A DNA stretch of 64,000 nucleotides from a virus. The stretch is from IMG/VR virus record IMGVR_UViG_3300018080_000100; one strand, 5' to 3'. Shown here one piece after another: positions 9,839 through 51,699 of the stretch. Made by a program: the position numbers and the translations under genes. The notes under the pieces are model-generated. The model was not told the DNA's origin and ran no database searches. It worked only from the letters and a program-made list of their open reading frames with translations. Within the stretch, counting starts at the first letter, position 1; each line of letters begins with the position of its first letter.

Positions 9839-9982
9839 CTATAGATAGCAAACCACCATACAAATTACCCAGACCACCAGCAGAGCGATCCAGAACTTCT
9901 TCGTATGTGACCAGACATGACCACAGTATCGTTCGAAGGACTCGAACTTTTCCAGGTCATCACTCTTAGGACCATCCTCCAT
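9839..9982 (-). CDS. small hydrophobic-tail protein
   Basis: Internal ATG (MEDGPK…) with GGAGAG 9 nt upstream; C-terminal TM segment; divergent from the terminase gene. Confidence 0.25.
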   Translation of the reverse strand: MEDGPKSDDLEKFESFERYCGHVWSHTKKFWIALLVVWVICMVVCYL

Positions 9983-11876
9983 GTCTTCTGACTCTCCAGT
10001 CTTCGACGAACCGATTGCGCTAGAAGGACTCCTGGCGCAAGCGAAAACAGTGTTCAATCCCGATGAAAACTCTCGAATAACGTCCACCGACCAGGTGGCC
10101 GCCTACAATAAGCTGTTGCGCACAGGCCAGGTAGATACCCTGGCGCACGCGCTACCGCTTATGTTGAACCTCAAGGGTAATCCGTACACCCTGAACGACC
10201 ACTTTCCTTTCGAGGAAATCTTCCGGTTCCACATGCCGTCGGCGCTGATCTACAAGACCGGCCGGCAGGTGTCCAAATCTACATCTCTGGCAGCGCACGG
10301 CGTCGTTACGTCGATCTCGCTGCCGAACATCACCACGCTGTACGTCATGCCGCTCTTCGAGCAGGTGCGCCGTTTCAGCACGATGTTTGTGCAACCATTC
10401 ATCGACCAATCGCCGGTCAAGAAGCTCTGGACGGGCACGGACACCGTGAACAGCGTGCTCCACCGCAGCTTCCACAACCATTCGAAGATGCTCTTCTCGT
10501 TCGCGTTCCTGAACGCAGACCGTATCCGCGGTATTTCCGCGGACAAGATGGCGGTCGACGAAGTCCAGGACATGAACCACGAGCACATCCCCATTATACG
10601 CGAAACGATGTCGGCAAGCCCGTGGGCCTTCCGACAATTTACCGGAACGCCCAAAACGCTCGACAATACGCTGGAAGCGCTCTGGGGTGAGTCGTCCCAA
10701 GCAGAGTGGTTTGTGCCGTGCATGCACTGCACGACCAACGGCGCGCCGACCTGGAACATCCCCACAATGGAGTTCCACCTGGAGAAGATGATCGGGCCCT
10801 ACCGCCCAGACATCTCCGAGGCGCATCCGGCAACGATCTGCCACAAGTGCGGCAAAGCGATCAGCCCACGCCTCGGCCGGTGGGTGCACAGATACCCTGA
10901 TCGGATTTGGGATCAGGCGGGCTATCACGTGCCGCAGGTCATAATGCCGCTGCACTATGCGAAACCTGACAAGTGGGCAGAACTACTTGCCAAGATGGCC
11001 GGTAAGGGCAACACCCCGCTGAACGTGTTCTTCAACGAAGTGCTGGGCGAATCGTACGATACGGCAGCCAAGCTCGTGACGCTGACCGAGATCGACGCGG
11101 TGTCAAACCTTGGCGAGAACACCATCAACGCAGCGCGCGCCCGCCGGGGTATGTACAGCATGGTTGTGCTGGCAGTCGACTGGGGTGGCGGCGGTGAGAA
11201 GGGCCTGAGCTTCACGACGGCTGCCGTGTTGGGTATGCGCCGAGACGGCACCATCGAGGTCATCTACGGCAAGCGCCTGCTGACGCCACACGACCACCTG
11301 CGCGAGGCTCGAGAGATCAAGCAGCTCTGGGAGATCTTCAAGCCCACGATACTGGCGCACGACTACACAGGCGCCGGTGCGCTCCGCGAGACGTTCCTGA
11401 TCCAGGCTGGTGTGCCCACGCGGGCCACGATGCCTTGCCAGTACGTCCGCTCGGCGTCGCAGCAGCCGTGCTACCACGTGGCGCCTACGCTGCAGCACCC
11501 ACGCTCGCACTACCGCGTTGACAAGAGCCGCTCGCTGTTGCTCACCTGCGCGATGATCAAATGCCGACGGCTCAAGTTCTTCAACAAGGACCACAATAGC
11601 AAGGAAGACCCAGGACTCATCTGGGACTTCTTGGCCCTGGTGGAAGACAAGGTCACCACGATGGCTGCGGGCGAGATCTACCGGATCACGAAGCAGCCGG
11701 GCTTCACCGACGACTTCGCGCAAGCTGTGAACCTGGGATGCGTCGCAATGTGGTATCGCACCCGCAGATGGCCAAAGCTTGACGAGATCGCCGAGTACGC
11801 CATCACGGACGACCAGCTACGCGCGTCGGTGCCGCAGCACGACTCCGACTGGGACGACGAGCTACTGCCAGGCTAG
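9981..11876 (+). CDS. terL: terminase large subunit (ATPase + nuclease)
   Basis: 631 aa; Walker-A-like YKTGRQVSKST; Walker B MAVDEVQDM; C-terminal RNase-H-like nuclease segment (VLAVDWGGGG…); inserted Cys/His cluster (CMHC…CHKC). One of the few plus-strand genes. Confidence 0.55.
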   Translation: MSSDSPVFDEPIALEGLLAQAKTVFNPDENSRITSTDQVAAYNKLLRTGQVDTLAHALPLMLNLKGNPYTLNDHFPFEEIFRFHMPSALIYKTGRQVSKSTSLAAHGVVTSISLPNITTLYVMPLFEQVRRFSTMFVQPFIDQSPVKKLWTGTDTVNSVLHRSFHNHSKMLFSFAFLNADRIRGISADKMAVDEVQDMNHEHIPIIRETMSASPWAFRQFTGTPKTLDNTLEALWGESSQAEWFVPCMHCTTNGAPTWNIPTMEFHLEKMIGPYRPDISEAHPATICHKCGKAISPRLGRWVHRYPDRIWDQAGYHVPQVIMPLHYAKPDKWAELLAKMAGKGNTPLNVFFNEVLGESYDTAAKLVTLTEIDAVSNLGENTINAARARRGMYSMVVLAVDWGGGGEKGLSFTTAAVLGMRRDGTIEVIYGKRLLTPHDHLREAREIKQLWEIFKPTILAHDYTGAGALRETFLIQAGVPTRATMPCQYVRSASQQPCYHVAPTLQHPRSHYRVDKSRSLLLTCAMIKCRRLKFFNKDHNSKEDPGLIWDFLALVEDKVTTMAAGEIYRITKQPGFTDDFAQAVNLGCVAMWYRTRRWPKLDEIAEYAITDDQLRASVPQHDSDWDDELLPG

Positions 11877-37754: not shown

Positions 37755-38519
37755 CTACGCGGTCTGCGCCGGAGCAGCAGCTTTCGCTCCTTGCGTAATG
37801 AAGTCGAAGAGCGGCCGGGCGATCTCGAAGCTGTCGGTCTGCGCCTGGTTGGCCTGTTCGCGGGCCAGCCGGATGCCTTCGATCAGCTTGTCGACGCGCT
37901 CCAGCATCTTCTCCTTCTCGTCTGCCGGTATTCTACCCGACATGAGCACAGTTTCCCACTCACCTACGACGATGTCCTCGTCGAAGCGCTCGGTCTGTGC
38001 AGGGTGCTCGGTGGTGGCTTCGTACTTCACCAGTACCTGTGGGACTTTCCGCGTCCGGACCTTGCTTGTCTTCCCCGTCACGAAGCAGTTGCGGTTGGGG
38101 TCGTGGGTCCAGTTTTCGGCGGAGTCCAGTACCGGCAGATGTGCTAGGAATGTGCGCACGTCGGTGACGTGCTTTTCCAGGAACAGCAAGCTGGTGACCG
38201 GTACGTCGGCCAGGATCAGGGCGCCATCCACCTTGATGTCGCCCTTGGCCGTGCAGTTGGCTGCGTCCTGCGTCGCGGTGACGTTCAGGAGCTTGGTCCA
38301 ATGCTTGACGGCCTTCTTGAGGCAGCTTTCCCAGGTGCACTGGATGTTCTTGTGCTCCGGCGGCAGCTGAGGCTCGTCCTCGCGCTTGGATTTGTAGGTC
38401 CGCACCAGTCCGTCGAACAAGGCAGGTTTCTGGACCTGCTTGTAGATGGTGGTGACGGCTTCCTGCGTCCGGGTTCGTTGCCCGTTCGCAACAGCGATGA
38501 TCTGATTCAGTTTGGGCAT
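37755..38519 (-). CDS. hypothetical protein
   Basis: 254-aa ORF; no motif. Confidence 0.4.
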   Translation of the reverse strand: MPKLNQIIAVANGQRTRTQEAVTTIYKQVQKPALFDGLVRTYKSKREDEPQLPPEHKNIQCTWESCLKKAVKHWTKLLNVTATQDAANCTAKGDIKVDGALILADVPVTSLLFLEKHVTDVRTFLAHLPVLDSAENWTHDPNRNCFVTGKTSKVRTRKVPQVLVKYEATTEHPAQTERFDEDIVVGEWETVLMSGRIPADEKEKMLERVDKLIEGIRLAREQANQAQTDSFEIARPLFDFITQGAKAAAPAQTA

Positions 38520-40223: not shown

Positions 40224-40331
40224 GTGTTTCCTTTCGGTGTCATACGAAAACAGCGCAGCGGAAACTGAGCTCCGCTGCGCTGTTAAGTGTCTCAAACAAA
40301 GCTGGCGGAGGTTAGCCCGCCAGCATTATGC

Positions 40332-40994
40332 TTAGACGGGCGTCTCGGTGATCCGGTTGGGCGCATTTTCTGGCCCGCGCGGTTCCATCGAGGCTTCGAT
40401 CTGCGCCACGTCGACGCGGTTGTCGTTGCCTGCGAAGGTCATCAGGTACGCGAGGATCTGTTGGTACAGACCGTAAACGCGCAGCGAGTCGTGTCGGGTG
40501 ATGAACCGCGAACGCTCGCGCGAGTTGAGTCGCGTCCAGGTTACGATCACTGTGTCGACGGCCGACAACAGGATCCGGCCGTTGCCGCTCATGTTGAGCT
40601 GGCTGTTCACCGGGATGTCGACGTCCTGGCCCGAGAAGTCCCAAGGGAGTTGGTACATCTGCGTGGCCGGCATCTGGATGTCGTCGCCACCAAACGGATT
40701 GGCAGCATCGGTGATGTCCGCAGTTGCGTCGATCGCCGTAGCGATCTTGTCGCCGAGATCAGCACCGTCTGGGTTATGAGTAACCCGGCGACGCCAGCGA
40801 TCAGCGTTGACAAGCAGCTGCAGAAAATGGTCTCTCGACGGGTCGTCGAGACCGCCTCGGTCGCGGAGATCTTCACTGTGGACAATCTCCGAGCGCAGCA
40901 ACATCAACGGCTGCAGACCGGCGGCGATGTGATGGTTTCGGCATTCCGTGATTACGTTACGGAATTGTTCGACGCCAGGGTCACCTACTGGCAT
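40332..40994 (-). CDS. hypothetical protein
   Basis: 220-aa ORF. Confidence 0.4.
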   Translation of the reverse strand: MPVGDPGVEQFRNVITECRNHHIAAGLQPLMLLRSEIVHSEDLRDRGGLDDPSRDHFLQLLVNADRWRRRVTHNPDGADLGDKIATAIDATADITDAANPFGGDDIQMPATQMYQLPWDFSGQDVDIPVNSQLNMSGNGRILLSAVDTVIVTWTRLNSRERSRFITRHDSLRVYGLYQQILAYLMTFAGNDNRVDVAQIEASMEPRGPENAPNRITETPV

Positions 40995-42754
40995 GACTGG
41001 TCTCCTTTGGTGGGAGTTGAATGATAGGTTGCTGCCGGCGCCATTTCATTGAAGCGTCTCAGCAGCGTGTCCTTCATTATACGCGCCCAGTCATTCTCAG
41101 GTCCAGAGGGCTCTTGGTCAATTTTCTTGTCAAGTTCGTCGAGAGTAAGTCGGCCGATAAGTGCATCAAGTATCGGCGAACGTCCTTCGAGCTCCGAAAG
41201 TCGTATAAATTCCTGTGCTTCCGAGATGTCTCGGGGCACTGTGTCGTGGGTGGGAAACGTATCGGGCTCGGAAGCCCCTCCTTGCCCAGGCGGCGTCACG
41301 GGCGGGTCAACAGGCGGTACGACAGGCGGATCTGTGGGCGGTTCGATGGGCGTAACAGGCGGCAAATCAGGCAGTTTTGGCGCAGGCTTGCCGCGGAACC
41401 AGCAGAACGCCTTGTAGATACCAAAGCCGAGCGCCAGCAATCCGCCACCACCTGCCGATCCTGTCAGTAGCCACATGAGCGCCTGCTGCACCGACGGCTT
41501 TACCATATCCCAGTTTGACGGTTCGTCCGGCTCGGTTACCGTGGGCGGCGGATCGTTATTTGTCGGCGGCTCTACAGGCGGCGTAACCGGAGGGTCAACT
41601 GGCGGCGTAACCGGAGGGTCAACTGGCGGCGTAACTGGGGGTTGCACAGGTGGTTCGACCGGCGGCTGTACAGGTGGCGTAACCGGAGGCGTAACTGGCG
41701 GTTCAACAGGAGGTTCAACAGGCGGTTCAACCGGTGGCACCACTGGCGGCACTACAGGCGGTGGCTCAGCTGGCGGCGCAACTGGTGGCGTCACTGGTGG
41801 CACTACAGGCGGTGGCTCGACCGGCGGTGTCACCGGAGGCGTGACAGGCGGCTGTACAGGTGGCGTAACCGGAGGCTCGACCGGGGGCGTAACCGGAGGC
41901 GTGACAGGTGGCGTAACTGGGGGCACGACAGGCGGCTGTACAGGCGGCTGTATTGGCACCAGTGGCGGCCGCGGCTTTGGCGGCTGCGGGTACGGCGGGA
42001 GAATGAACTTCAACAGCGCACGCACACGCGGAAAGTAAGGTCCGCAGCAGCAGTTACCGTCAGTGCCGGTGATCAACCCTACGACTTCACCGCGCGACGT
42101 GTAGATCGGTCCGCCGCTCATGCCGCTGATTGCCGGCCCTCGGAACTCGATGACCGAGAGCGTGCGCCCTTGATCGAACGATAGCCATTTGCTGAACGTC
42201 CCCTTTGTGACGCGGTATGTAGTATTCATCGCCCAGCCGGACGCCCAATATATCTCGCCTTGCCTGGGCGGGCCTTTTGCGAAGCGCACCGGCTTGATAC
42301 CCGGATCGTCGATCTCGACGACGGCTACATCATAGAGATGGTTGTAGCGCAGCATTCGTGCCTTGAGCATCTTGCCGTTGATCAGCGTGACCGTCACAAC
42401 GGCCCCAGGCTTGTAGCCATGGGCGCAGGTGATCACGTGCGCTTTACCGTCCTTCTGTGCTGCAATAAAGCCGCTGCCGGCCAGTTCGCCGAATGCTACC
42501 TTGACCACCTGTTCGCAGGGTGGTGCTGCTGGAAGTGCTGGCGGCGCTGGTGCGGCCCAGGACTGCGATGGCGATGCGCGCCATTGGGTTTCGTGCGGCA
42601 GCTGCATCAGCAGCCCGCGGTAATCCTGCCGGCTAGGCGAATTGCGCTCTTCCCAGGGAACTACTTCATAGATGTCTACAGAACGGGGCTGGCCCGCAGC
42701 TACGGTTGGCAGCAGTAGGCATGCCAACAGGCAGAAAAGCGTACAGCATCTCAT
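40985..42754 (-). CDS. secreted, membrane-anchored trypsin-like (S1) serine protease with long PPVx repeat linker
   Basis: Start refined to MRCCTLFCLLACLLLPTVAAG (signal peptide; AAGGAG upstream). Catalytic His in ITCAHG and Ser in GMSGGPI. About 45 tandem (T/V/E/Q)PPV units, a TM helix (LMWLLTGSAGGGGLLALGFGIYKAFCWF), then a C-terminal domain. Confidence 0.6.
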   Translation of the reverse strand: MRCCTLFCLLACLLLPTVAAGQPRSVDIYEVVPWEERNSPSRQDYRGLLMQLPHETQWRASPSQSWAAPAPPALPAAPPCEQVVKVAFGELAGSGFIAAQKDGKAHVITCAHGYKPGAVVTVTLINGKMLKARMLRYNHLYDVAVVEIDDPGIKPVRFAKGPPRQGEIYWASGWAMNTTYRVTKGTFSKWLSFDQGRTLSVIEFRGPAISGMSGGPIYTSRGEVVGLITGTDGNCCCGPYFPRVRALLKFILPPYPQPPKPRPPLVPIQPPVQPPVVPPVTPPVTPPVTPPVEPPVTPPVQPPVTPPVTPPVEPPPVVPPVTPPVAPPAEPPPVVPPVVPPVEPPVEPPVEPPVTPPVTPPVQPPVEPPVQPPVTPPVDPPVTPPVDPPVTPPVEPPTNNDPPPTVTEPDEPSNWDMVKPSVQQALMWLLTGSAGGGGLLALGFGIYKAFCWFRGKPAPKLPDLPPVTPIEPPTDPPVVPPVDPPVTPPGQGGASEPDTFPTHDTVPRDISEAQEFIRLSELEGRSPILDALIGRLTLDELDKKIDQEPSGPENDWARIMKDTLLRRFNEMAPAATYHSTPTKGDQSCQ

Positions 42755-42973
42755 CGGGGACTCCTTTGCTGAGAGACGTGCATATTCTCTCATCAGACAC
42801 CGACGGAGTGGCGCTGTCAAGATCCTTGGGAAGTGGTAGCCCTGTGAGTCGAACACAGCACAGCGCGGTTATCAGCCGTGCTTGGGCAACCGGCCCTCGA
42901 CTACCATGGCCCTGGGCCCGGAGGCCCAGGGAGGACTTTCCATTATTTGGGATTGTCCGTTTCTCGTCCAGAC

Positions 42974-44002: not shown

Positions 44003-44293
44003 CTACCCGCGATCTTTGTCGTCGTCAAGCGTCTTTCGGGCAGATTTGGGCACCATAGCCATGAAATTCTCGATGCGCCCGAGTATGCCTTTGATATGGC
44101 CAGCCTGCTCGAGCGTGACATTGTGGATGGTCTCCCAGCGTGCGATGCCACGCAGCTCCTTAACGGCGTTCATCGACTCGTAGACGAATCTGTCGGCCTC
44201 CTTCTCGATAGGGATATAGGCCAGCAAGGATTCGAGATCGTCGAGTTTTTGTAGGGCTACGGCGCACAGCTTGGCCATTTTCTTGGCATTCAT
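44003..44293 (-). CDS. hypothetical protein
   Basis: 96-aa ORF. Confidence 0.35.
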   Translation of the reverse strand: MNAKKMAKLCAVALQKLDDLESLLAYIPIEKEADRFVYESMNAVKELRGIARWETIHNVTLEQAGHIKGILGRIENFMAMVPKSARKTLDDDKDRG

Positions 44294-47076
44294 CGCTCAC
44301 CTCCAATCACCGTGAGTTGGCGTCGGGAAGAACGACATCGTTCGATTTGCTTATTCCACCAAGAGTCTATGATGAACCACCCAATGTCTCCATTATATTC
44401 GCATTCGCAGTCGAGCGCATTGCCCATTTTGAATGCGTCGGTGACCTTGCCCGGGTCCGCAAGCGCTAAATTTCGTTTGAGAAGCGCGTGGTCCAGGACC
44501 GTTCGGGACAGGAAAACACCAGGAGCGCGGTCCGCCTCGGCTATCCGTATGATCGTTGGCATCTTGTACTTATGTGCTTCTTCGGCGTGGCAGAAGCGCA
44601 CCGCGCCGTCTTCGATGAAGCTGTACAGCAGTTGCACAAGCTGGCCGGCCCGACACGTTTCTGAGTCGGAACCGTCGTCGATCAGACGCACACCTTCGTG
44701 TACCACCTGCGGATCACCCAGCCTGGACATCATCTCGGTCATGCTATCAGCGACACCATAAATGTGCTCGCGACACCCGGCCAGGCGCAACTTGTCCACG
44801 CACAACCACTTGAGCCACAGCGGCAATACCAGCGGGCCGTACATACTGATTTCGGGACCAGGCTGTATCGGACTTTCGTCCTGGATGAAGCGCCAGGCGT
44901 CCAGCGTACCCGCCAGCCGCGCCCATGGCTCCGTCATATGGACGATCGTATTGCGCGTGTAGTCGCCGTTGAACAGTGTGCTCATCAGGCGCCGCGACGC
45001 TGCGCTGGCGTCGAGGTTGAGGATCAGTGGCCAGTTGTGCTGCTGCAGGATATCCTCGATCTTGTGGGCCGTACGGGTGCTATCCATGCTCTTGTGCCCA
45101 CCGATACGAAACTCTTGACAACCACTTGCCCGGGCGCTCGCACGCCCAACCATCAGCGCTCCGTGTCCAATCAGTCCGAGTCCGGATATTCTCCGGCCCG
45201 TCGCGGGTGCTACTATGTTTGCACCAAGGCAGACCGTGGACGCCCAGAACAAGCGGTTTGCAGGCGTATCGCGCAATAACGGCACGATTTTCGATGGGGT
45301 AGCGGGAGCGCCCAGGTTTTTGCCTGGCGCCCACTCATCAACGACGTGTGAGGGATCGTCGACGACTTCGCCACCTACGTGTATCGAAAACTGCGGTAGC
45401 GCGAAACAAGAATCCTTCGGTTTCCATCCGAATTTTCCGTCCTCCTTGATTACTTCTGGCTCGTGGAATTGCCGCGCGATGTCTAGCAGATATGCGTTCC
45501 ACCCGCGCTTAACAACCACCAGCTTACCTGCGGCGGCGAGCAGCTTCTTGCGAAGCCAAACGCCTGGGTTTTTGTCGATGGTGTCCATTGCTTCCTGGAA
45601 TGGATACTCATCACCCTTATATAGAATGCGGCCGTTGCAGTACACATCAGCGTCCGGGTCGTCAGTGCATAACACCTTCTCGATCCTGATGATCGCGTTG
45701 GAGATGCACTCGCTCGCCTCAGACTTGACCGACATGTACCAACCTTCGTCCGACTCTATAACCTCTTTGCCGTTGATCCGTGCTGTACCAACCAGCCGGA
45801 CCCTACGTTTGTTACGATCGATTAGCTGTTTGATATCGTCTGCGCACGTGGCGACGAACGACTGCATTTGCTCTGGGGCAATCTCCAACCGGCCCAGCAG
45901 GGCCACAGCCTTGTCTTCTGGCAGCGTGCGCAAGGCGTGCTCCAGCGAGGCTGTCCAGTGTACGGCGTTCTTGTGAATCAAGTTCAGCCATACGTGCGGA
46001 GGCTTACGTCCCAGATATGTAGGTGTCTTGCTGATGCAGATCATCCCGTCGGCACGGGCTGCCATGTTGAACAGGTCTGCCGTCAGCGTAGCGCCCCAGA
46101 ACGTGAAGTGCTTGTCCGGCCGCGTACGCCAGATGTCGTGTGCGACCAGCTCGCAGAGGCGTGTGATGCGCTTCACCTTGGCGTTGTACGTCCCCACCAC
46201 AGGTAGGGGGAGATCTGACTCCCGCATGTGCCGTGCCTGCAGCTTCAGCGCATGGACCGGGTCGTTGAACACGAAGATACGGTCACCGAAACGATCCCGG
46301 TGTGCAGTCTGCGAATCCAGCACGTCGTACATACACAGACCAGACTCCACTTGCGGCCTGTTCGACCCCTCGCCGTCGATAATGTGGTAGGCGTAGTCCG
46401 TGTCGCGCCTGCCCTGCCGCCCGATGAATAGCCAGCCCGAGCATTGCCCGGGCAGCGTATGGAACGGAATGGTAAGCACGTCACGCCAGCCTTTGCCCTT
46501 GAAGAATCGTGCGCCCTTCTTCATCTTGTGCCAGTCGTCGTGCGGTTTGAAGAAGGTCTGGTAGACCCTGAGCCGGTCAGCCCCGCCCATAAACCGGCCC
46601 ATACGTTTCGGCCAGTAGGGCTTCAGCTGGTCCGCTGGCAGCCCTGTTTGCTGCAATATGAAGTTGACCTTCACGTGCCCCTCGCTGATAGCCTCGCGAG
46701 CATCGTCGAGCAGCTTGACGCAGTTCTCCTGCATCCCGAGCACCTGCTTCTCGTACTTCGCCACGAACTCTGGCGCAGACCGTTCTTCAGGGATCGTACA
46801 GCCCGCGGTCACAAGCTTGCGCACCGCCAGCTGTATGGAGCAGTCCCAGTGGCTTGCTGCCAGTGATATCATGTCCCCTTTGGAATGACAGTCGGGACAG
46901 TGGTGCCAATTACCGCCGAACCTGGTATCATTGAATACAGTCAACCGGCGCCCGTGGCACAACGGGCATTCGGTCAACAGCGGTATAGGTCCCTCGCGCG
47001 TCGTGACGCCTAATAGCGGCAGCACTTGATGGTAGTCGACGTGGCTGTTTAGCGATCTGCGCTTCTGGGACATCAC
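44290..47076 (-). CDS. DNA primase (DnaG-type CHC2 zinc finger) / large replication protein
   Basis: 928 aa; N-terminal CPLCHGRRLTVFNDTRFGGNWHHCPDCHSKGDMISLAASHWD matches the DnaG zinc-ribbon (CxxCH…HCxxC…G..I.F); large downstream domains consistent with a primase-polymerase/helicase loader. Confidence 0.5.
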   Translation of the reverse strand: MMSQKRRSLNSHVDYHQVLPLLGVTTREGPIPLLTECPLCHGRRLTVFNDTRFGGNWHHCPDCHSKGDMISLAASHWDCSIQLAVRKLVTAGCTIPEERSAPEFVAKYEKQVLGMQENCVKLLDDAREAISEGHVKVNFILQQTGLPADQLKPYWPKRMGRFMGGADRLRVYQTFFKPHDDWHKMKKGARFFKGKGWRDVLTIPFHTLPGQCSGWLFIGRQGRRDTDYAYHIIDGEGSNRPQVESGLCMYDVLDSQTAHRDRFGDRIFVFNDPVHALKLQARHMRESDLPLPVVGTYNAKVKRITRLCELVAHDIWRTRPDKHFTFWGATLTADLFNMAARADGMICISKTPTYLGRKPPHVWLNLIHKNAVHWTASLEHALRTLPEDKAVALLGRLEIAPEQMQSFVATCADDIKQLIDRNKRRVRLVGTARINGKEVIESDEGWYMSVKSEASECISNAIIRIEKVLCTDDPDADVYCNGRILYKGDEYPFQEAMDTIDKNPGVWLRKKLLAAAGKLVVVKRGWNAYLLDIARQFHEPEVIKEDGKFGWKPKDSCFALPQFSIHVGGEVVDDPSHVVDEWAPGKNLGAPATPSKIVPLLRDTPANRLFWASTVCLGANIVAPATGRRISGLGLIGHGALMVGRASARASGCQEFRIGGHKSMDSTRTAHKIEDILQQHNWPLILNLDASAASRRLMSTLFNGDYTRNTIVHMTEPWARLAGTLDAWRFIQDESPIQPGPEISMYGPLVLPLWLKWLCVDKLRLAGCREHIYGVADSMTEMMSRLGDPQVVHEGVRLIDDGSDSETCRAGQLVQLLYSFIEDGAVRFCHAEEAHKYKMPTIIRIAEADRAPGVFLSRTVLDHALLKRNLALADPGKVTDAFKMGNALDCECEYNGDIGWFIIDSWWNKQIERCRSSRRQLTVIGGER

Positions 47077-50760: not shown

Positions 50761-51699
50761 TTACTGAGTCGCGGGCGCGTGTCGAATGGTTTCGATCGAC
50801 TCCCGCATCATAGCGGTGTTCATCGTGGCCTGGTTGATCGCCTCGTAAGGCATAATGAAGACCACGTTGTTCTCGCCCTTGGCCATTTCGGTGGAGACGT
50901 TTTCCATCACCTCCATCTGGCGCCACGATAAGTACGATGGCGTCAGCGACTTGGCCAAGATACCGTTTTCGTCCGCCTGGGCTTGCGCCCGGATCATACG
51001 GACTTTTGCCAATTCCGTTTCTATTCCGGCCCGCCGTTGTGCTTCCGCCATTTCGGCCTCAGCCAGGGCTGCCTTCCGTTGATCTTCCAGCTCGGCATTC
51101 TTGATAGCGTTCCGTTGCTGGATAACGACCGGCGGATAGTCGATGTTGGAGACCAACACCGCCGATACGTTCAGCGGGTACTTCAGCGCGGTCAGTCGTT
51201 TGCGTACGTCCGCCGATAGATCCGCCTCGATCTTCAATCTGTTAGGCCGGATGTCATCGGTTTCGTACGTGCTAACGATATTGCGCGTTGACGATCGAAT
51301 GATGTCCCGAACGGTCATCTCGTAGAACTTGTCCAGAGACAGCTCGTGTCCGGCTACCTCAGAGCCGTCTGCTGTCTTAATCGCCGGAACTTTCTCCTTG
51401 ATGAACTCGATCGAATCTTTGTCGACCTGGAACGACAGCACGGCCTTCGTGTCGACGTCCATGTTGATATCGTCCGTACAGAGAATCTTCAGCGTCTCCT
51501 TGTACGACTTCAACTTCTGGTCAACGAAGTACAGCCGATCGCGGCCGTAGGCCTTGTACACGCCCTCGCTGACGATGGTGCTCTCACCGCTTGGGTGGAG
51601 GATGATCACCTTCTTTCCAGGAGGCACGACGCTTCCCATGCACCCGGTCAGTGTCATCACGAAACACGCCAACAAGCTAATCAGAATCAACCTCTTCAT
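50761..51699 (-). CDS. SPFH/band-7 family lipoprotein
   Basis: 312 aa; lipobox MTLTGC; SPFH-like core; C-terminal Ala/Glu coiled coil (AALAEAEMAEAQRRA). Confidence 0.5.
   Translation of the reverse strand: MKRLILISLLACFVMTLTGCMGSVVPPGKKVIILHPSGESTIVSEGVYKAYGRDRLYFVDQKLKSYKETLKILCTDDINMDVDTKAVLSFQVDKDSIEFIKEKVPAIKTADGSEVAGHELSLDKFYEMTVRDIIRSSTRNIVSTYETDDIRPNRLKIEADLSADVRKRLTALKYPLNVSAVLVSNIDYPPVVIQQRNAIKNAELEDQRKAALAEAEMAEAQRRAGIETELAKVRMIRAQAQADENGILAKSLTPSYLSWRQMEVMENVSTEMAKGENNVVFIMPYEAINQATMNTAMMRESIETIRHAPATQ

Follow-up and report, generated by a model that had tools for sequence, protein, structure and literature searches.

A stretch of 64,000 nucleotides of viral DNA (IMG/VR record IMGVR_UViG_3300018080_000100), referred to below as the window, contains a gene for a putative membrane-tethered protease and, next to it, a gene for a 220-residue protein. 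Both genes, and all other features given here with coordinates, lie on the minus strand. The open reading frame of the protease extends over 40985..42856 and encodes 623 aa when counted from a GTG codon at 42856, and this was the gene span given in the original prediction. The GTG falls within a tRNA-Ile(GAT) gene detected by ARAGORN at 42833..42905, directly upstream of the protease gene, and the start was therefore moved to the ATG at 42754. An AAGGAG Shine-Dalgarno sequence is located 7 nt upstream of this ATG, and on an independent contig (L096) gene callers likewise assigned this gene a length of 589 aa. The corrected coding sequence occupies 40985..42754 and encodes 589 aa followed by a TAG stop codon.

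The next gene, at 40332..40994, encodes a helical protein of 220 aa (p220), predicted to be cytoplasmic, and its ATG overlaps the stop codon of the protease gene by 10 nt. A sequence resembling a sigma-70 promoter is present at 42942..42970, upstream of tRNA-Ile. It agrees with the consensus at 9 of 12 positions and, as a consensus match only, is a possible start of a unit comprising tRNA-Ile, the protease gene and p220. An intrinsic-terminator-like hairpin (40301..40324; a 9-bp stem with 7 GC pairs and a T-rich tail), located 8 nt past the p220 stop codon, appears to mark the end of the bicistronic protease-p220 unit.

Sequence analysis confirmed that the predicted protease consists, in this order, of a signal peptide, a Trypsin_2 head, a proline-rich rod, one transmembrane (TM) helix and a presumably cytoplasmic three-helix C-terminal domain (CTD). 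This arrangement suggests a type-I (N-out, C-in) topology in the inner membrane. The signal peptide that had been proposed earlier was found as MRCCTLFCLLACLLLPTVAAG (42692..42754), with a Kyte-Doolittle hydrophobicity of 2.2 across 19 residues and a predicted signal peptidase I site after VAA or AAG. Homologues have equivalent N-terminal signals, and the peptide is probably cleaved off. It is followed by a Pro/Ala/Ser-rich extension of 59 aa (42515..42691), which is specific to this protein: it is missing from the homologue P0001 (alignment A1), and relatives have a CxxGxCP motif in its place. The extension could be a pro-region.

The head (42002..42514) was assigned to the chymotrypsin-fold serine proteases from sequence profiles and conservation of the catalytic triad. 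It matched Pfam PF13365 Trypsin_2 over profile positions 1-144 of 144 (65 bits against a gathering cut-off of 27.6, E=1.6e-17), in agreement with the trypsin fold named in the original prediction, and the chymotrypsin double beta-barrel is the fold expected from such a match. The catalytic His and Ser had been placed correctly in TCAHG and GMSGGP; these are His112 (42419-42421) and Ser213 (42116-42118, in a GxSGG serine motif). The Asp of the triad, whose absence would have spoken against a protease, was located as Asp142 in LYDVAVV (42329-42331). The three residues occur in the order His, Asp, Ser, align to the catalytic residues of HTRA1 and are conserved among 85 related heads in 80, 82 and 85 cases, respectively. 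By sequence, the closest solved structures in the PDB were HtrA1, DegS, DegQ and MucD (E about 1e-5), and a further match was the S1C-like sensor domain of the anti-sigma factor RsgI9 (7sjy, E=1.6e-4). The best NCBIfam matches were MarP (E=4.6e-13, 49 bits) and Do/HtrA. Pfam revealed no PDZ domain after the head at E values up to 1; the proline array comes next. We propose that the head is an active periplasmic serine protease, judging from these profile matches and the intact triad. Searches of INPHARED for near-identical or related phages gave tRNA-sized matches only, tblastn with the head gave two weak Listeria matches, and a scan of IMG/VR with the head alone gave none.

The head is joined to the rod through a conserved junction, LPPYPQPPKPRPPLVPIQ (41948..42001), whose LPPY motif is also found in P0001, P0004, P0005 and the L102 protein. 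The PPVx tandem array that follows (41564..41947) has 31 tetrapeptide-type units plus PP, 128 aa in all, with 66 Pro, 34 Val, 10 acidic and no basic residues. Four further PPVx units are located past the TM helix, which brings the number to about 35 units and the number of PPV strings in the protein to 34, rather than the ~45 repeats claimed at first. The rod as a whole is 146 aa long, acidic and half proline, and if it adopted polyproline-II (PPII) geometry it would be about 40-45 nm long. The Pro content of the stalk is 52%, and basic residues are absent. Compared with the linkers of its family (median ~100 aa, Pro fraction 0.15) the stalk is an outlier both in length and in composition (170 aa, 0.46). 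The predicted 12-nt tandem array was confirmed by TRF. A CRISPR array, which had already been discounted, was rejected since the 12-nt period lies inside an open reading frame that keeps its frame. Between units, identity is 84% at the first two codon positions but only 37% at the third; such synonymous scrambling indicates selection on the peptide.

Comparison of repeat copy number revealed a polymorphic site at 41577..41635, a perfect 35-nt direct repeat with a spacing of 24 nt. Other assemblies of the phage are without one 24-nt copy (PPVT PPVD) and so have 29 units instead of 31. This two-unit indel is the sole difference between independent assemblies, with no others in 10 kb, which makes real variation in copy number more likely than an artefact of assembly, and the 29-unit form is best regarded as a co-circulating variant of the stalk. 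It could be argued that the 24-nt difference, together with two contigs that end inside the array, reflects expansion or collapse during assembly and that the real linker is short. We consider this highly improbable: the units are strongly diversified at synonymous sites (22 of 29 12-mers are distinct, and no exact repeat is longer than 35 nt), and the whole variable site of 59 nt is far shorter than the k of 141 used for the MEGAHIT contigs. Two independent assemblies yielded each allele, at least four samples gave the gene in separate assemblies, and the reading frame is kept through the whole array.

An acidic spacer, TNNDPPPTVTEPDEPSNWDMVKPSVQQ (41483..41563), probably lies on the periplasmic side of the membrane, next to the predicted TM segment ALMWLLTGSAGGGGLLALGFGIY-KAFCWF (41396..41482). 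The latter is Gly-rich, with acidic residues before and basic residues after it, and its hydrophobicity is moderate (Kyte-Doolittle 1.38) because of the Gly run. At the equivalent position family members have a TM segment followed by RRRRK. In the protein studied here the segment is followed by a basic stop-transfer sequence (RGKPAPK) and the second short Pro-rich stretch with the four PPVx units (41288..41395), which should be cytoplasmic. The TM helix and cytoplasmic tail described at the outset are thus both present in a layout shared by the CTD family, although the tail proved to contain a conserved domain genetically coupled to p220, a detail that had been missed. This domain (41036..41236), delineated by phmmer, alignment A3 and AlphaFold2 (AF2), is a three-helix bundle in the AF2 model (pLDDT 84, core above 95). 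Its motif is PRDxxEA..LRLSxLEGRSP..DAL.GR...DELD..ID...WA..L+..L..RFNEMAP, and 9 columns of the alignment are invariant. phmmer found CTD relatives in at least 130 protein clusters at E<1e-3 (down to E=5.5e-23). No match was detected in Pfam, and a fold search in the PDB gave generic helical matches only (E>0.5).

p220 gave no match in Pfam, PHROG, NCBIfam, PADLOC, the PDB or BFVD. Its AF2 model has a pTM of 0.73, and 48 of its residues are invariant, many of them Arg, Asp or His; in diverse viral contigs it is 49-83% identical. As neither the CTD nor p220 has detectable fold relatives, the cytoplasmic half of the system yields no functional clue. The two are closely associated in genomes: of 72 loci from viruses or Planctomycetota, 66 have a CTD gene directly upstream of p220, and in 63 of these 66 the genes are adjacent on the same strand. 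Contact between the two proteins is a plausible reading of this linkage. The enzymatic head is less constant. In some relatives an HEVDH plus thioredoxin head replaces the protease; among 30 alternative heads HEVDH is present in 25 and WCxxC in 24, with a match to Pfam Thioredoxin. On the strength of these comparisons, head, spacer, TM helix and CTD together with p220 appear to be a widespread, unannotated two-gene module of phages and prophages.

When species-representative genomes were scanned with p220 as the probe, 70 of 74 matches were in Planctomycetota, cultured isolates included; Lacipirellula limnantheis I41, Adhaeretor mobilis HG15A2 and Planctomicrobium spp. are cultured carriers of the module. 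The phage is a huge one (226 kb or more) and most likely has its host in this phylum. Among relatives the module usually resides in prophages, beside a C92/YiiX-like (permuted NlpC/P60-like) amidase gene, which lies about 2 kb upstream in 59 of 67 cases; the amidase is absent from four of the seven viral contigs with the module. Other neighbours in relatives are small TM/coiled-coil proteins and, downstream, ParB-like, TerS-like, terminase and lambda-type portal genes. In some viral contigs Lipase_3 or caspase-like genes adjoin p220, and a Pfam scan of the region downstream of the module in viral contigs gave mixed neighbours. Some bacterial genomes (L057) have a three-gene core without obvious phage genes. 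In the window itself the neighbours of the protease gene are tRNAs and genes without assigned function. No C92 homologue was found anywhere in its 64 kb, no holin, endolysin or terminase is recognisable beside the pair, and TerL lies on the opposite strand at a distance of 30 kb; for this reason the lysis-cassette context comes from the relatives only.

Several known proteins resemble parts of the protease. MarP (Rv3671c) of Mycobacterium tuberculosis is likewise a PDZ-less chymotrypsin-fold serine protease that is anchored in the cytoplasmic membrane and acts in the periplasm, where it cleaves the NlpC/P60 wall hydrolase RipA (PMC6628586); relatives of the present module usually have the permuted NlpC/P60-like C92 gene upstream. 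In MarP, however, the protease is C-terminal and follows four N-terminal TM helices, the reverse of the order found here, and the present protein has a predicted cleavable signal, a proline rod and a cytoplasmic CTD. The score against the MarP family was 49 bits, compared with an equivalog cut-off of 250. HtrA, DegP, DegS and DegQ (MEROPS S1C) agree with the present head in the GxSGG motif around the Ser and in the HtrA-type context of the Asp, and DegS is anchored in the inner membrane too, but the family is marked by one or two C-terminal PDZ domains after the protease, and the anchor is N-terminal rather than C-terminal; scores against the HtrA/DegP/DegS equivalog and subfamily models of NCBIfam were 23-43 bits for cut-offs of 408-470. 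Likeness to RsgI9 is confined to the protease-like domain, and no anti-sigma (RsgI type) or sigma domain was found in the protease or p220 with Pfam or NCBIfam.

With respect to the stalk, TonB and TolA also combine an inner-membrane anchor with a Pro-rich rod that presents a globular domain near the outer membrane, and the Pro-rich segment of TonB is thought to be a PPII rod long enough to cross the periplasm (PMC9022066). These proteins are not homologous to the protease, and TonB is anchored by its N-terminus and is a force transducer, not an enzyme; the present rod is longer (128-146 aa), uniformly acidic and built of regular PPVx tetrapeptides. The heads most similar to this one (40-44% identity) belong to P0001, P0004 and P0005, which have signal peptides and come from temperate-phage-like contigs of the same samples. 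Their stalk is also extended and PPII-based, but is made of a coiled coil and a Gly-Pro-Pro collagen repeat leading to a C-terminal beta-rich domain, and these proteins are without the TM helix, the CTD and the p220 neighbour.

Unimolecular spanins such as gp11 of phage T1 span the periplasm between an N-terminal export signal and a C-terminal TM helix, and are recognised by an N-terminal lipoprotein signal with a lipobox Cys. The relatives of the module occupy a similar, lysis-cassette-like genomic position, but the protease is much larger and has an enzymatic head and a cytoplasmic domain. Its sole lipobox candidate, LLAC, with Cys at residue 12 and Leu at -2, fails the standard lipobox pattern, and identity as a lipoprotein or u-spanin was rejected on these grounds.

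On balance we favour, with some reserve, a tethered periplasmic enzyme that cuts host envelope proteins late in infection and belongs to a module with CTD-p220 docking and interchangeable heads. According to this proposal the Sec signal peptide would export the HtrA/MarP-like Trypsin_2 head into the periplasm, and the single TM helix would anchor the protein. The acidic PPVx rod, if PPII, would keep the head at a long distance from the membrane, in the direction of the peptidoglycan and the outer membrane, within what would be an enlarged host periplasm. In the cytoplasm the CTD would dock with the translationally coupled p220, and the pair may determine where the enzyme is positioned or when it acts. 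The module would then be composed of a periplasmic protein-modifying head, which can be exchanged, a spacer, a TM helix and the CTD, together with p220 and usually C92. Its role may be the late cleavage of host envelope proteins, that is, dismantling of the envelope or support of lysis; alternatively, by analogy with MarP and RipA, the protease may cleave a wall hydrolase and so activate it. Substrate and timing are suggested by these analogies and by gene context. A lysis-related or envelope-remodelling enzyme had been among the first guesses; as a possible role it fits the neighbourhood in relatives, with C92, small TM/coiled-coil, lipase and terminase/portal genes.

It is also conceivable, although we think it unlikely, that the protein is an anti-sigma-like device for trans-membrane signalling or regulated release. 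The head would sense an envelope cue or be triggered by it, and the CTD would sequester p220 and then free it as a regulator that switches the expression of phage genes or the induction of the prophage. The strict conservation of the CTD-p220 pairing while the heads vary agrees with such a device, as do the match to the RsgI9 sensor domain and the abundance of invariant Arg, Asp and His residues in p220.

An equally improbable explanation is a superinfection-exclusion or host-conversion moron, in which a protease (or thioredoxin/metalloprotease) made in the infected or lysogenic cell would destroy the receptors or periplasmic entry proteins that competing phages use. Most family members are indeed located in prophages, at the border of the structural/packaging module where morons are typically found. 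In addition, a promoter-like site and a terminator belong to the unit itself, and the neighbours of p220 vary. Against this, the pair is kept in a huge, apparently lytic-type phage and in viral contigs as diverse as the p220 identities show, and conservation of this kind, combined with translational coupling, points to a core function in the phage. PADLOC matched no defence system in the protease, giving only generic protease-domain matches (RT-Protease_XI, LmuA, Avs1b), and nothing in p220, C92 or the thioredoxin-type head; a defence-system reading was accordingly rejected. The prohead or other virion-associated protease suggested in the original prediction is phage-encoded and would suit the label 'protease' of PHROG 9683, which the protein matched, but is scarcely credible for a product with a predicted signal peptide, TM helix and 40-nm stalk, envelope-anchored bacterial homologues, no S78, U35 or S49 match in Pfam or PHROGs and no capsid or portal gene adjacent in the window.

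Very little is known about phage entry, remodelling or lysis of Planctomycetota, whose envelope is unusual in its enlarged periplasm and its wall layers rich in protein and Cys, and a literature search found nothing specific on planctomycete phage lysis or on this protein family. The gene pair is conserved, yet wholly unannotated, in planctomycete genomes and diverse phages; each of its two conserved parts, CTD and p220, is a candidate for a new domain family, and several planctomycete isolates with the pair are open to genetic testing. Its design of exchangeable periplasmic enzyme, spacer, membrane anchor, docking domain and partner protein is also testable.

The tethered-enzyme proposal can be extended, tentatively and with more doubt than confidence, to an undescribed envelope-disruption system of protease, p220 and mostly C92 that is specialised for the planctomycete envelope and uses the PPVx array as an evolvable molecular ruler. 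In Planctomycetota the periplasm is extended and the wall proteins are rich in Cys (PMC12673574). The target would be this wide periplasm with its disulfide-cross-linked Cys/Pro-rich wall proteins; heads, either serine protease or metalloprotease plus thioredoxin, would be held at a set distance by a spacer of variable length and switched on from the cytoplasm by the CTD-p220 pair, and the step from 29 to 31 units would be a change in ruler length. The stalk is in any case a natural example of a length-variable polyproline spacer on an enzyme. It does not have to be a ruler whose length suits the periplasm, however, because many unrelated proteins of viruses contain PPVx spacers: five or more consecutive units are present in at least 120 viral contigs of IMG/VR, and their arrays, of up to 34 units (PPVD, PPVV, PPVT, PPVA), join unrelated N- and C-terminal domains. 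The GxSGG protease motif was found in none of ~45 top-ranked viral PPVx ORFs, and the TM+CTD layout in none of the 12 whose sequences were inspected. Many of these other arrays are perfect at the peptide level, whereas in the array described here the fourth position is variously T, E, Q, V, D or A.

The minus-strand open reading frame 40985..42856, in which a protease had originally been predicted, is real. However, the GTG codon taken as its start sits within the tRNA-Ile(GAT) gene (42833..42905, minus strand), and the start was therefore reassigned to the ATG at 42754, the first in-frame ATG past this tRNA gene, with AAGGAG 7 nt upstream. The product is 589 aa long, and the same 589 aa were obtained by a gene caller on an independent contig. 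Numbered from this Met, the protein comprises a hydrophobic signal (residues 1-21, Kyte-Doolittle 2.2), a Pro/Ala/Ser-rich extension unique to it (22-80), a Trypsin_2 domain (81-251), a conserved LPPY junction (252-269), the PPVx array (270-397), an acidic spacer (398-424), a Gly-rich hydrophobic segment (425-453), the sequence RGKPAPK (454-460), another short Pro stretch containing four PPVx units (461-489) and a conserved C-terminal domain, CTD (507-573). An export signal is present and the charge pattern of the hydrophobic segment is acidic outside and basic inside; the topology is probably N-out, C-in.

The N-terminal enzyme domain, or head, is an intact S1-type protease domain. Pfam Trypsin_2 matched it with E=1.6e-17 over all 144 profile positions and PHROG 9683 ('protease') with E=1e-9. 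The nearest solved structures are those of HTRA1, DegS, DegQ and MucD (E about 1e-5), with whose catalytic His, Asp and Ser the TCAHG, LYDVAVV and GMSGGP motifs align. The Asp, on which the original prediction had hinged, can thus be located in LYDVAVV, and the catalytic columns of 85 aligned related heads contain His in 80, Asp in 82 and Ser in all 85. The MarP and Do/HtrA models of NCBIfam ranked top, yet far under their cut-offs, and no PDZ domain was found in the protein. The closest heads (40-44% identity) belong to P0001, P0004 and P0005, homologues with the layout signal peptide-protease-coiled coil-collagen (GPP) that are located on temperate-phage-like contigs of the same samples. Bacterial proteins contain more distant heads (28-30% identity), preceded by a signal peptide and connected through a Pro/Ala-rich linker to a C-terminal transmembrane (TM) anchor; one of these proteins sits in a planctomycete-like chromosomal neighbourhood. 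With both collagen-stalked and Pro/Ala-linked, TM-anchored relatives, this head thus recurs on extended stalks or tethers. The protease-coiled coil-GPP collagen fusions (L001 407-1501; L004 2273-3304) adjoin caspase-like (Peptidase_C14) and integrase genes; they bear the query's head on a stalk of another kind.

The main array (window 41564..41947) consists of 31 PPVx-type units and a terminal PP. Its 128 aa include 66 Pro, 34 Val, 12 Thr, 8 Glu, 4 Gln, 2 Asp and 2 Ala and no basic residues; with the junction, the Pro-rich region extends to 146 aa. An earlier count of about 45 repeats was too high, as there are 34 'PPV' strings in the whole protein. Units are 84% identical to one another at codon positions 1 and 2 versus 37% at position 3, 22 of 29 12-mers are distinct, and no exact direct repeat is longer than one of 35 nt. 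These values indicate that selection acts on the peptide and that the DNA is not a recent perfect tandem. The rise of polyproline-II (PPII) is 0.31 nm per residue, which predicts a length of about 40 nm for the array and about 45 nm for the whole Pro-rich region; the stalk would have the geometry of a PPII rod. The stalk alone requires 75 Pro codons.

This phage has been assembled independently several times (longest contig 226.5 kb), with the 220-aa product of the gene directly downstream, p220, 100% identical among the assemblies. The 589-aa version is found in the window and in JGI 3300017992, and a 581-aa version in ENA ERZ27256796 and ERZ27256790. The latter are without one 24-nt copy (PPVT PPVD), precisely at the 35-nt perfect repeat, which is spaced 24 nt; over the 10 kb compared this is the only gap, and there are no mismatches. 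Two Logan contigs stop exactly at the same site. Since the variable site, at 59 nt, is well under the k-mer length used for the MEGAHIT contigs (k=141), assembler collapse is unlikely. A real polymorphism of 29 versus 31 units is the better reading, and the assembly artefact that the original prediction had allowed for is effectively excluded. The acidic proline repeat is long, under peptide-level selection and probably variable in copy number.

The value of the protein lies less in the proline stalk itself than in the widespread, unannotated two-gene phage module and the two candidate new domain families that it exposes. A full HMMER scan with the last 169 residues as probe gave 130 clusters with E<1e-3, of which 37 had E<1e-10; the match lies at about residues 75-158 of the probe in all of them. 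Most members are of 400-670 aa with the order signal/TM, Trypsin_2 with GDSGG, linker, TM and CTD; the linker is Pro-rich and often coiled-coil, and the TM segment ends in RRRRK. AlphaFold2 with a 30-sequence alignment modelled the CTD as a three-helix bundle (core pLDDT above 95), for which Foldseek found no match in the PDB below E=0.5; no Pfam model covers the region. The median linker length in the family is about 100 aa, with a Pro content of about 15%, against 170 aa and 46% Pro here. The nearest relative by p220 identity (L102, 83%) has the same head and LPPY junction and an acidic/coiled-coil, non-repetitive linker. Amplification of an ordinary spacer in this lineage thus gave rise to the PPVx array. 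At 41 loci (L038 6309-7931, L057 6264-7904 and 39 other genome loci) the CTD protein carries, in place of the serine protease, an alternative periplasmic head with HEVDH (25/30) and thioredoxin WCxxC (24/30) motifs (Pfam Thioredoxin, E=1.5e-8), followed by a Pro/Glu/Lys-rich linker, TM and CTD. Thus TM, CTD and p220 stay constant, and what varies is a protein-modifying enzyme in the periplasm. In several genomes protease-TM and CTD are encoded by two consecutive ORFs (L094 6478-7632 and 7697-7948; similar Bythopirellula/Lacipirellulaceae loci), which could reflect a frameshift, a pseudogene or a genuine split.

The p220 gene (40332..40994, minus strand) starts 10 nt ahead of the protease stop codon. 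Judged by consensus matches only, a promoter-like site (42970-42942, minus strand), tRNA-Ile, the protease gene, p220 and a strong terminator hairpin (40324-40301, minus strand) appear to form a transcription unit. The CTD search in IMG/VR found four contigs, all with a p220 homologue directly downstream, and these two genes are the only ones common to the four contigs and the window. With p220 as probe, 9 viral contigs and 74 species genomes were matched, 70 of the latter Planctomycetota, among them the isolates Planctomicrobium SH661/SH527/SH668, Lacipirellula limnantheis I41, Adhaeretor mobilis HG15A2 and Bythopirellula polymerisocia Pla144; a large protein database contains 461 p220 clusters. 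Of 72 loci whose sequence extends more than 2 kb upstream of p220, 66 had a CTD-bearing ORF, adjacent and on the same strand in 63 of these. In most viral contigs the gap between the two genes ranges from -14 to 21 nt; in genomes its median is 84 nt. The linkage is tight and conserved, the module is distributed in (pro)phages of Planctomycetota, and the CTD may contact p220.

A C92/YiiX-like permuted papain amidase is encoded about 2.2 kb upstream at 59 of 67 loci; no homologue was found in the window. Downstream, many prophages encode small proteins with an N-terminal TM and coiled coil, ParB-like, ATPase-GNAT and TerS-like proteins, terminase and a lambda-family portal. In viral contigs a class-3 lipase or caspase-like peptidase can be next past p220; in L102 and L012, TerL is reached within 1-4 kb. 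A DUF7873 protein (E=3e-92; window 37755-38519, minus strand) is encoded 2.5 kb downstream of the protease-p220 pair, and a 47%-identical copy lies at 8455-8775 of L004, the temperate-phage-like contig carrying the protease-collagen protein P0004.

The query is probably a membrane-tethered periplasmic serine protease, a known kind. The enzymes around the module (amidase, protease, thioredoxin/metalloprotease, lipase) fit a role in dismantling the envelope, as does the envelope biology of the likely hosts: the periplasm of Planctomycetota is extended, and their envelope contains Cys-rich YTV wall proteins as well as peptidoglycan (PMC12673574). Activation of the NlpC/P60 hydrolase RipA by MarP (PMC6628586) is a mechanistic precedent for the protease, and the PPII rod of TonB (PMC9022066) a geometric one for the stalk. 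Envelope proteins are the likely substrates, and the protease would act late or at lysis. Signalling or superinfection exclusion is a less likely role for the module. Function as a prohead protease, suggested originally, is effectively excluded. The original observation holds with the corrections given, and its interpretation is supported in part.

The window is part of a huge phage and encodes a large terminase, an NAD-dependent ligase and other phage genes; INPHARED contains no close relative. Its 39 tRNA genes (12671-43988, minus strand) cover nearly all amino acids, with three Pro, three Thr and two Val isoacceptors, and are scattered among the ORFs, alone or a few together, without forming a single block. 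The large terminase (9981-11876) is encoded on the plus strand, unlike all tRNAs and nearly every other long ORF, which lie on the minus strand. The latter strand also encodes an SPFH/Band-7 protein (50761-51699; PHROG 200, 'lipoprotein'), a NodZ-like fucosyltransferase (33008-34084), a radical-SAM protein (34123-34908) and a 928-aa ORF (44290-47076) with an N-terminal Cys/His zinc-finger-like motif and no significant family in Pfam, PHROGs or NCBIfam. An 845-aa ORF (29126-31663, minus strand) matches the Major Vault Protein shoulder (PF11978, E=7e-23) and Vault_3 repeat (E=4e-9); a vault-like protein is unusual in a phage.

The stalk type is not unique to this protein, as a DNA pattern encoding five PPVx units in a row matches at least 120 IMG/VR contigs. 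Among the matches listed, translated arrays reach 34 perfect units (PPVD, PPVV, PPVT, PPVA) and form linkers in unrelated proteins; none of the roughly 45 best ORFs listed has a GxSGG protease motif and none of 12 sequences read has the TM and CTD layout. Besides L143, L151, L209 and L214, at least 116 further IMG/VR contigs contain perfect arrays of the types (PPVD)n, (PPVV)n, (PPVT)n and (PPVA)n, 15-34 units long. In many viral proteins with such perfect arrays, a small Cys-rich C-terminal domain follows the array.
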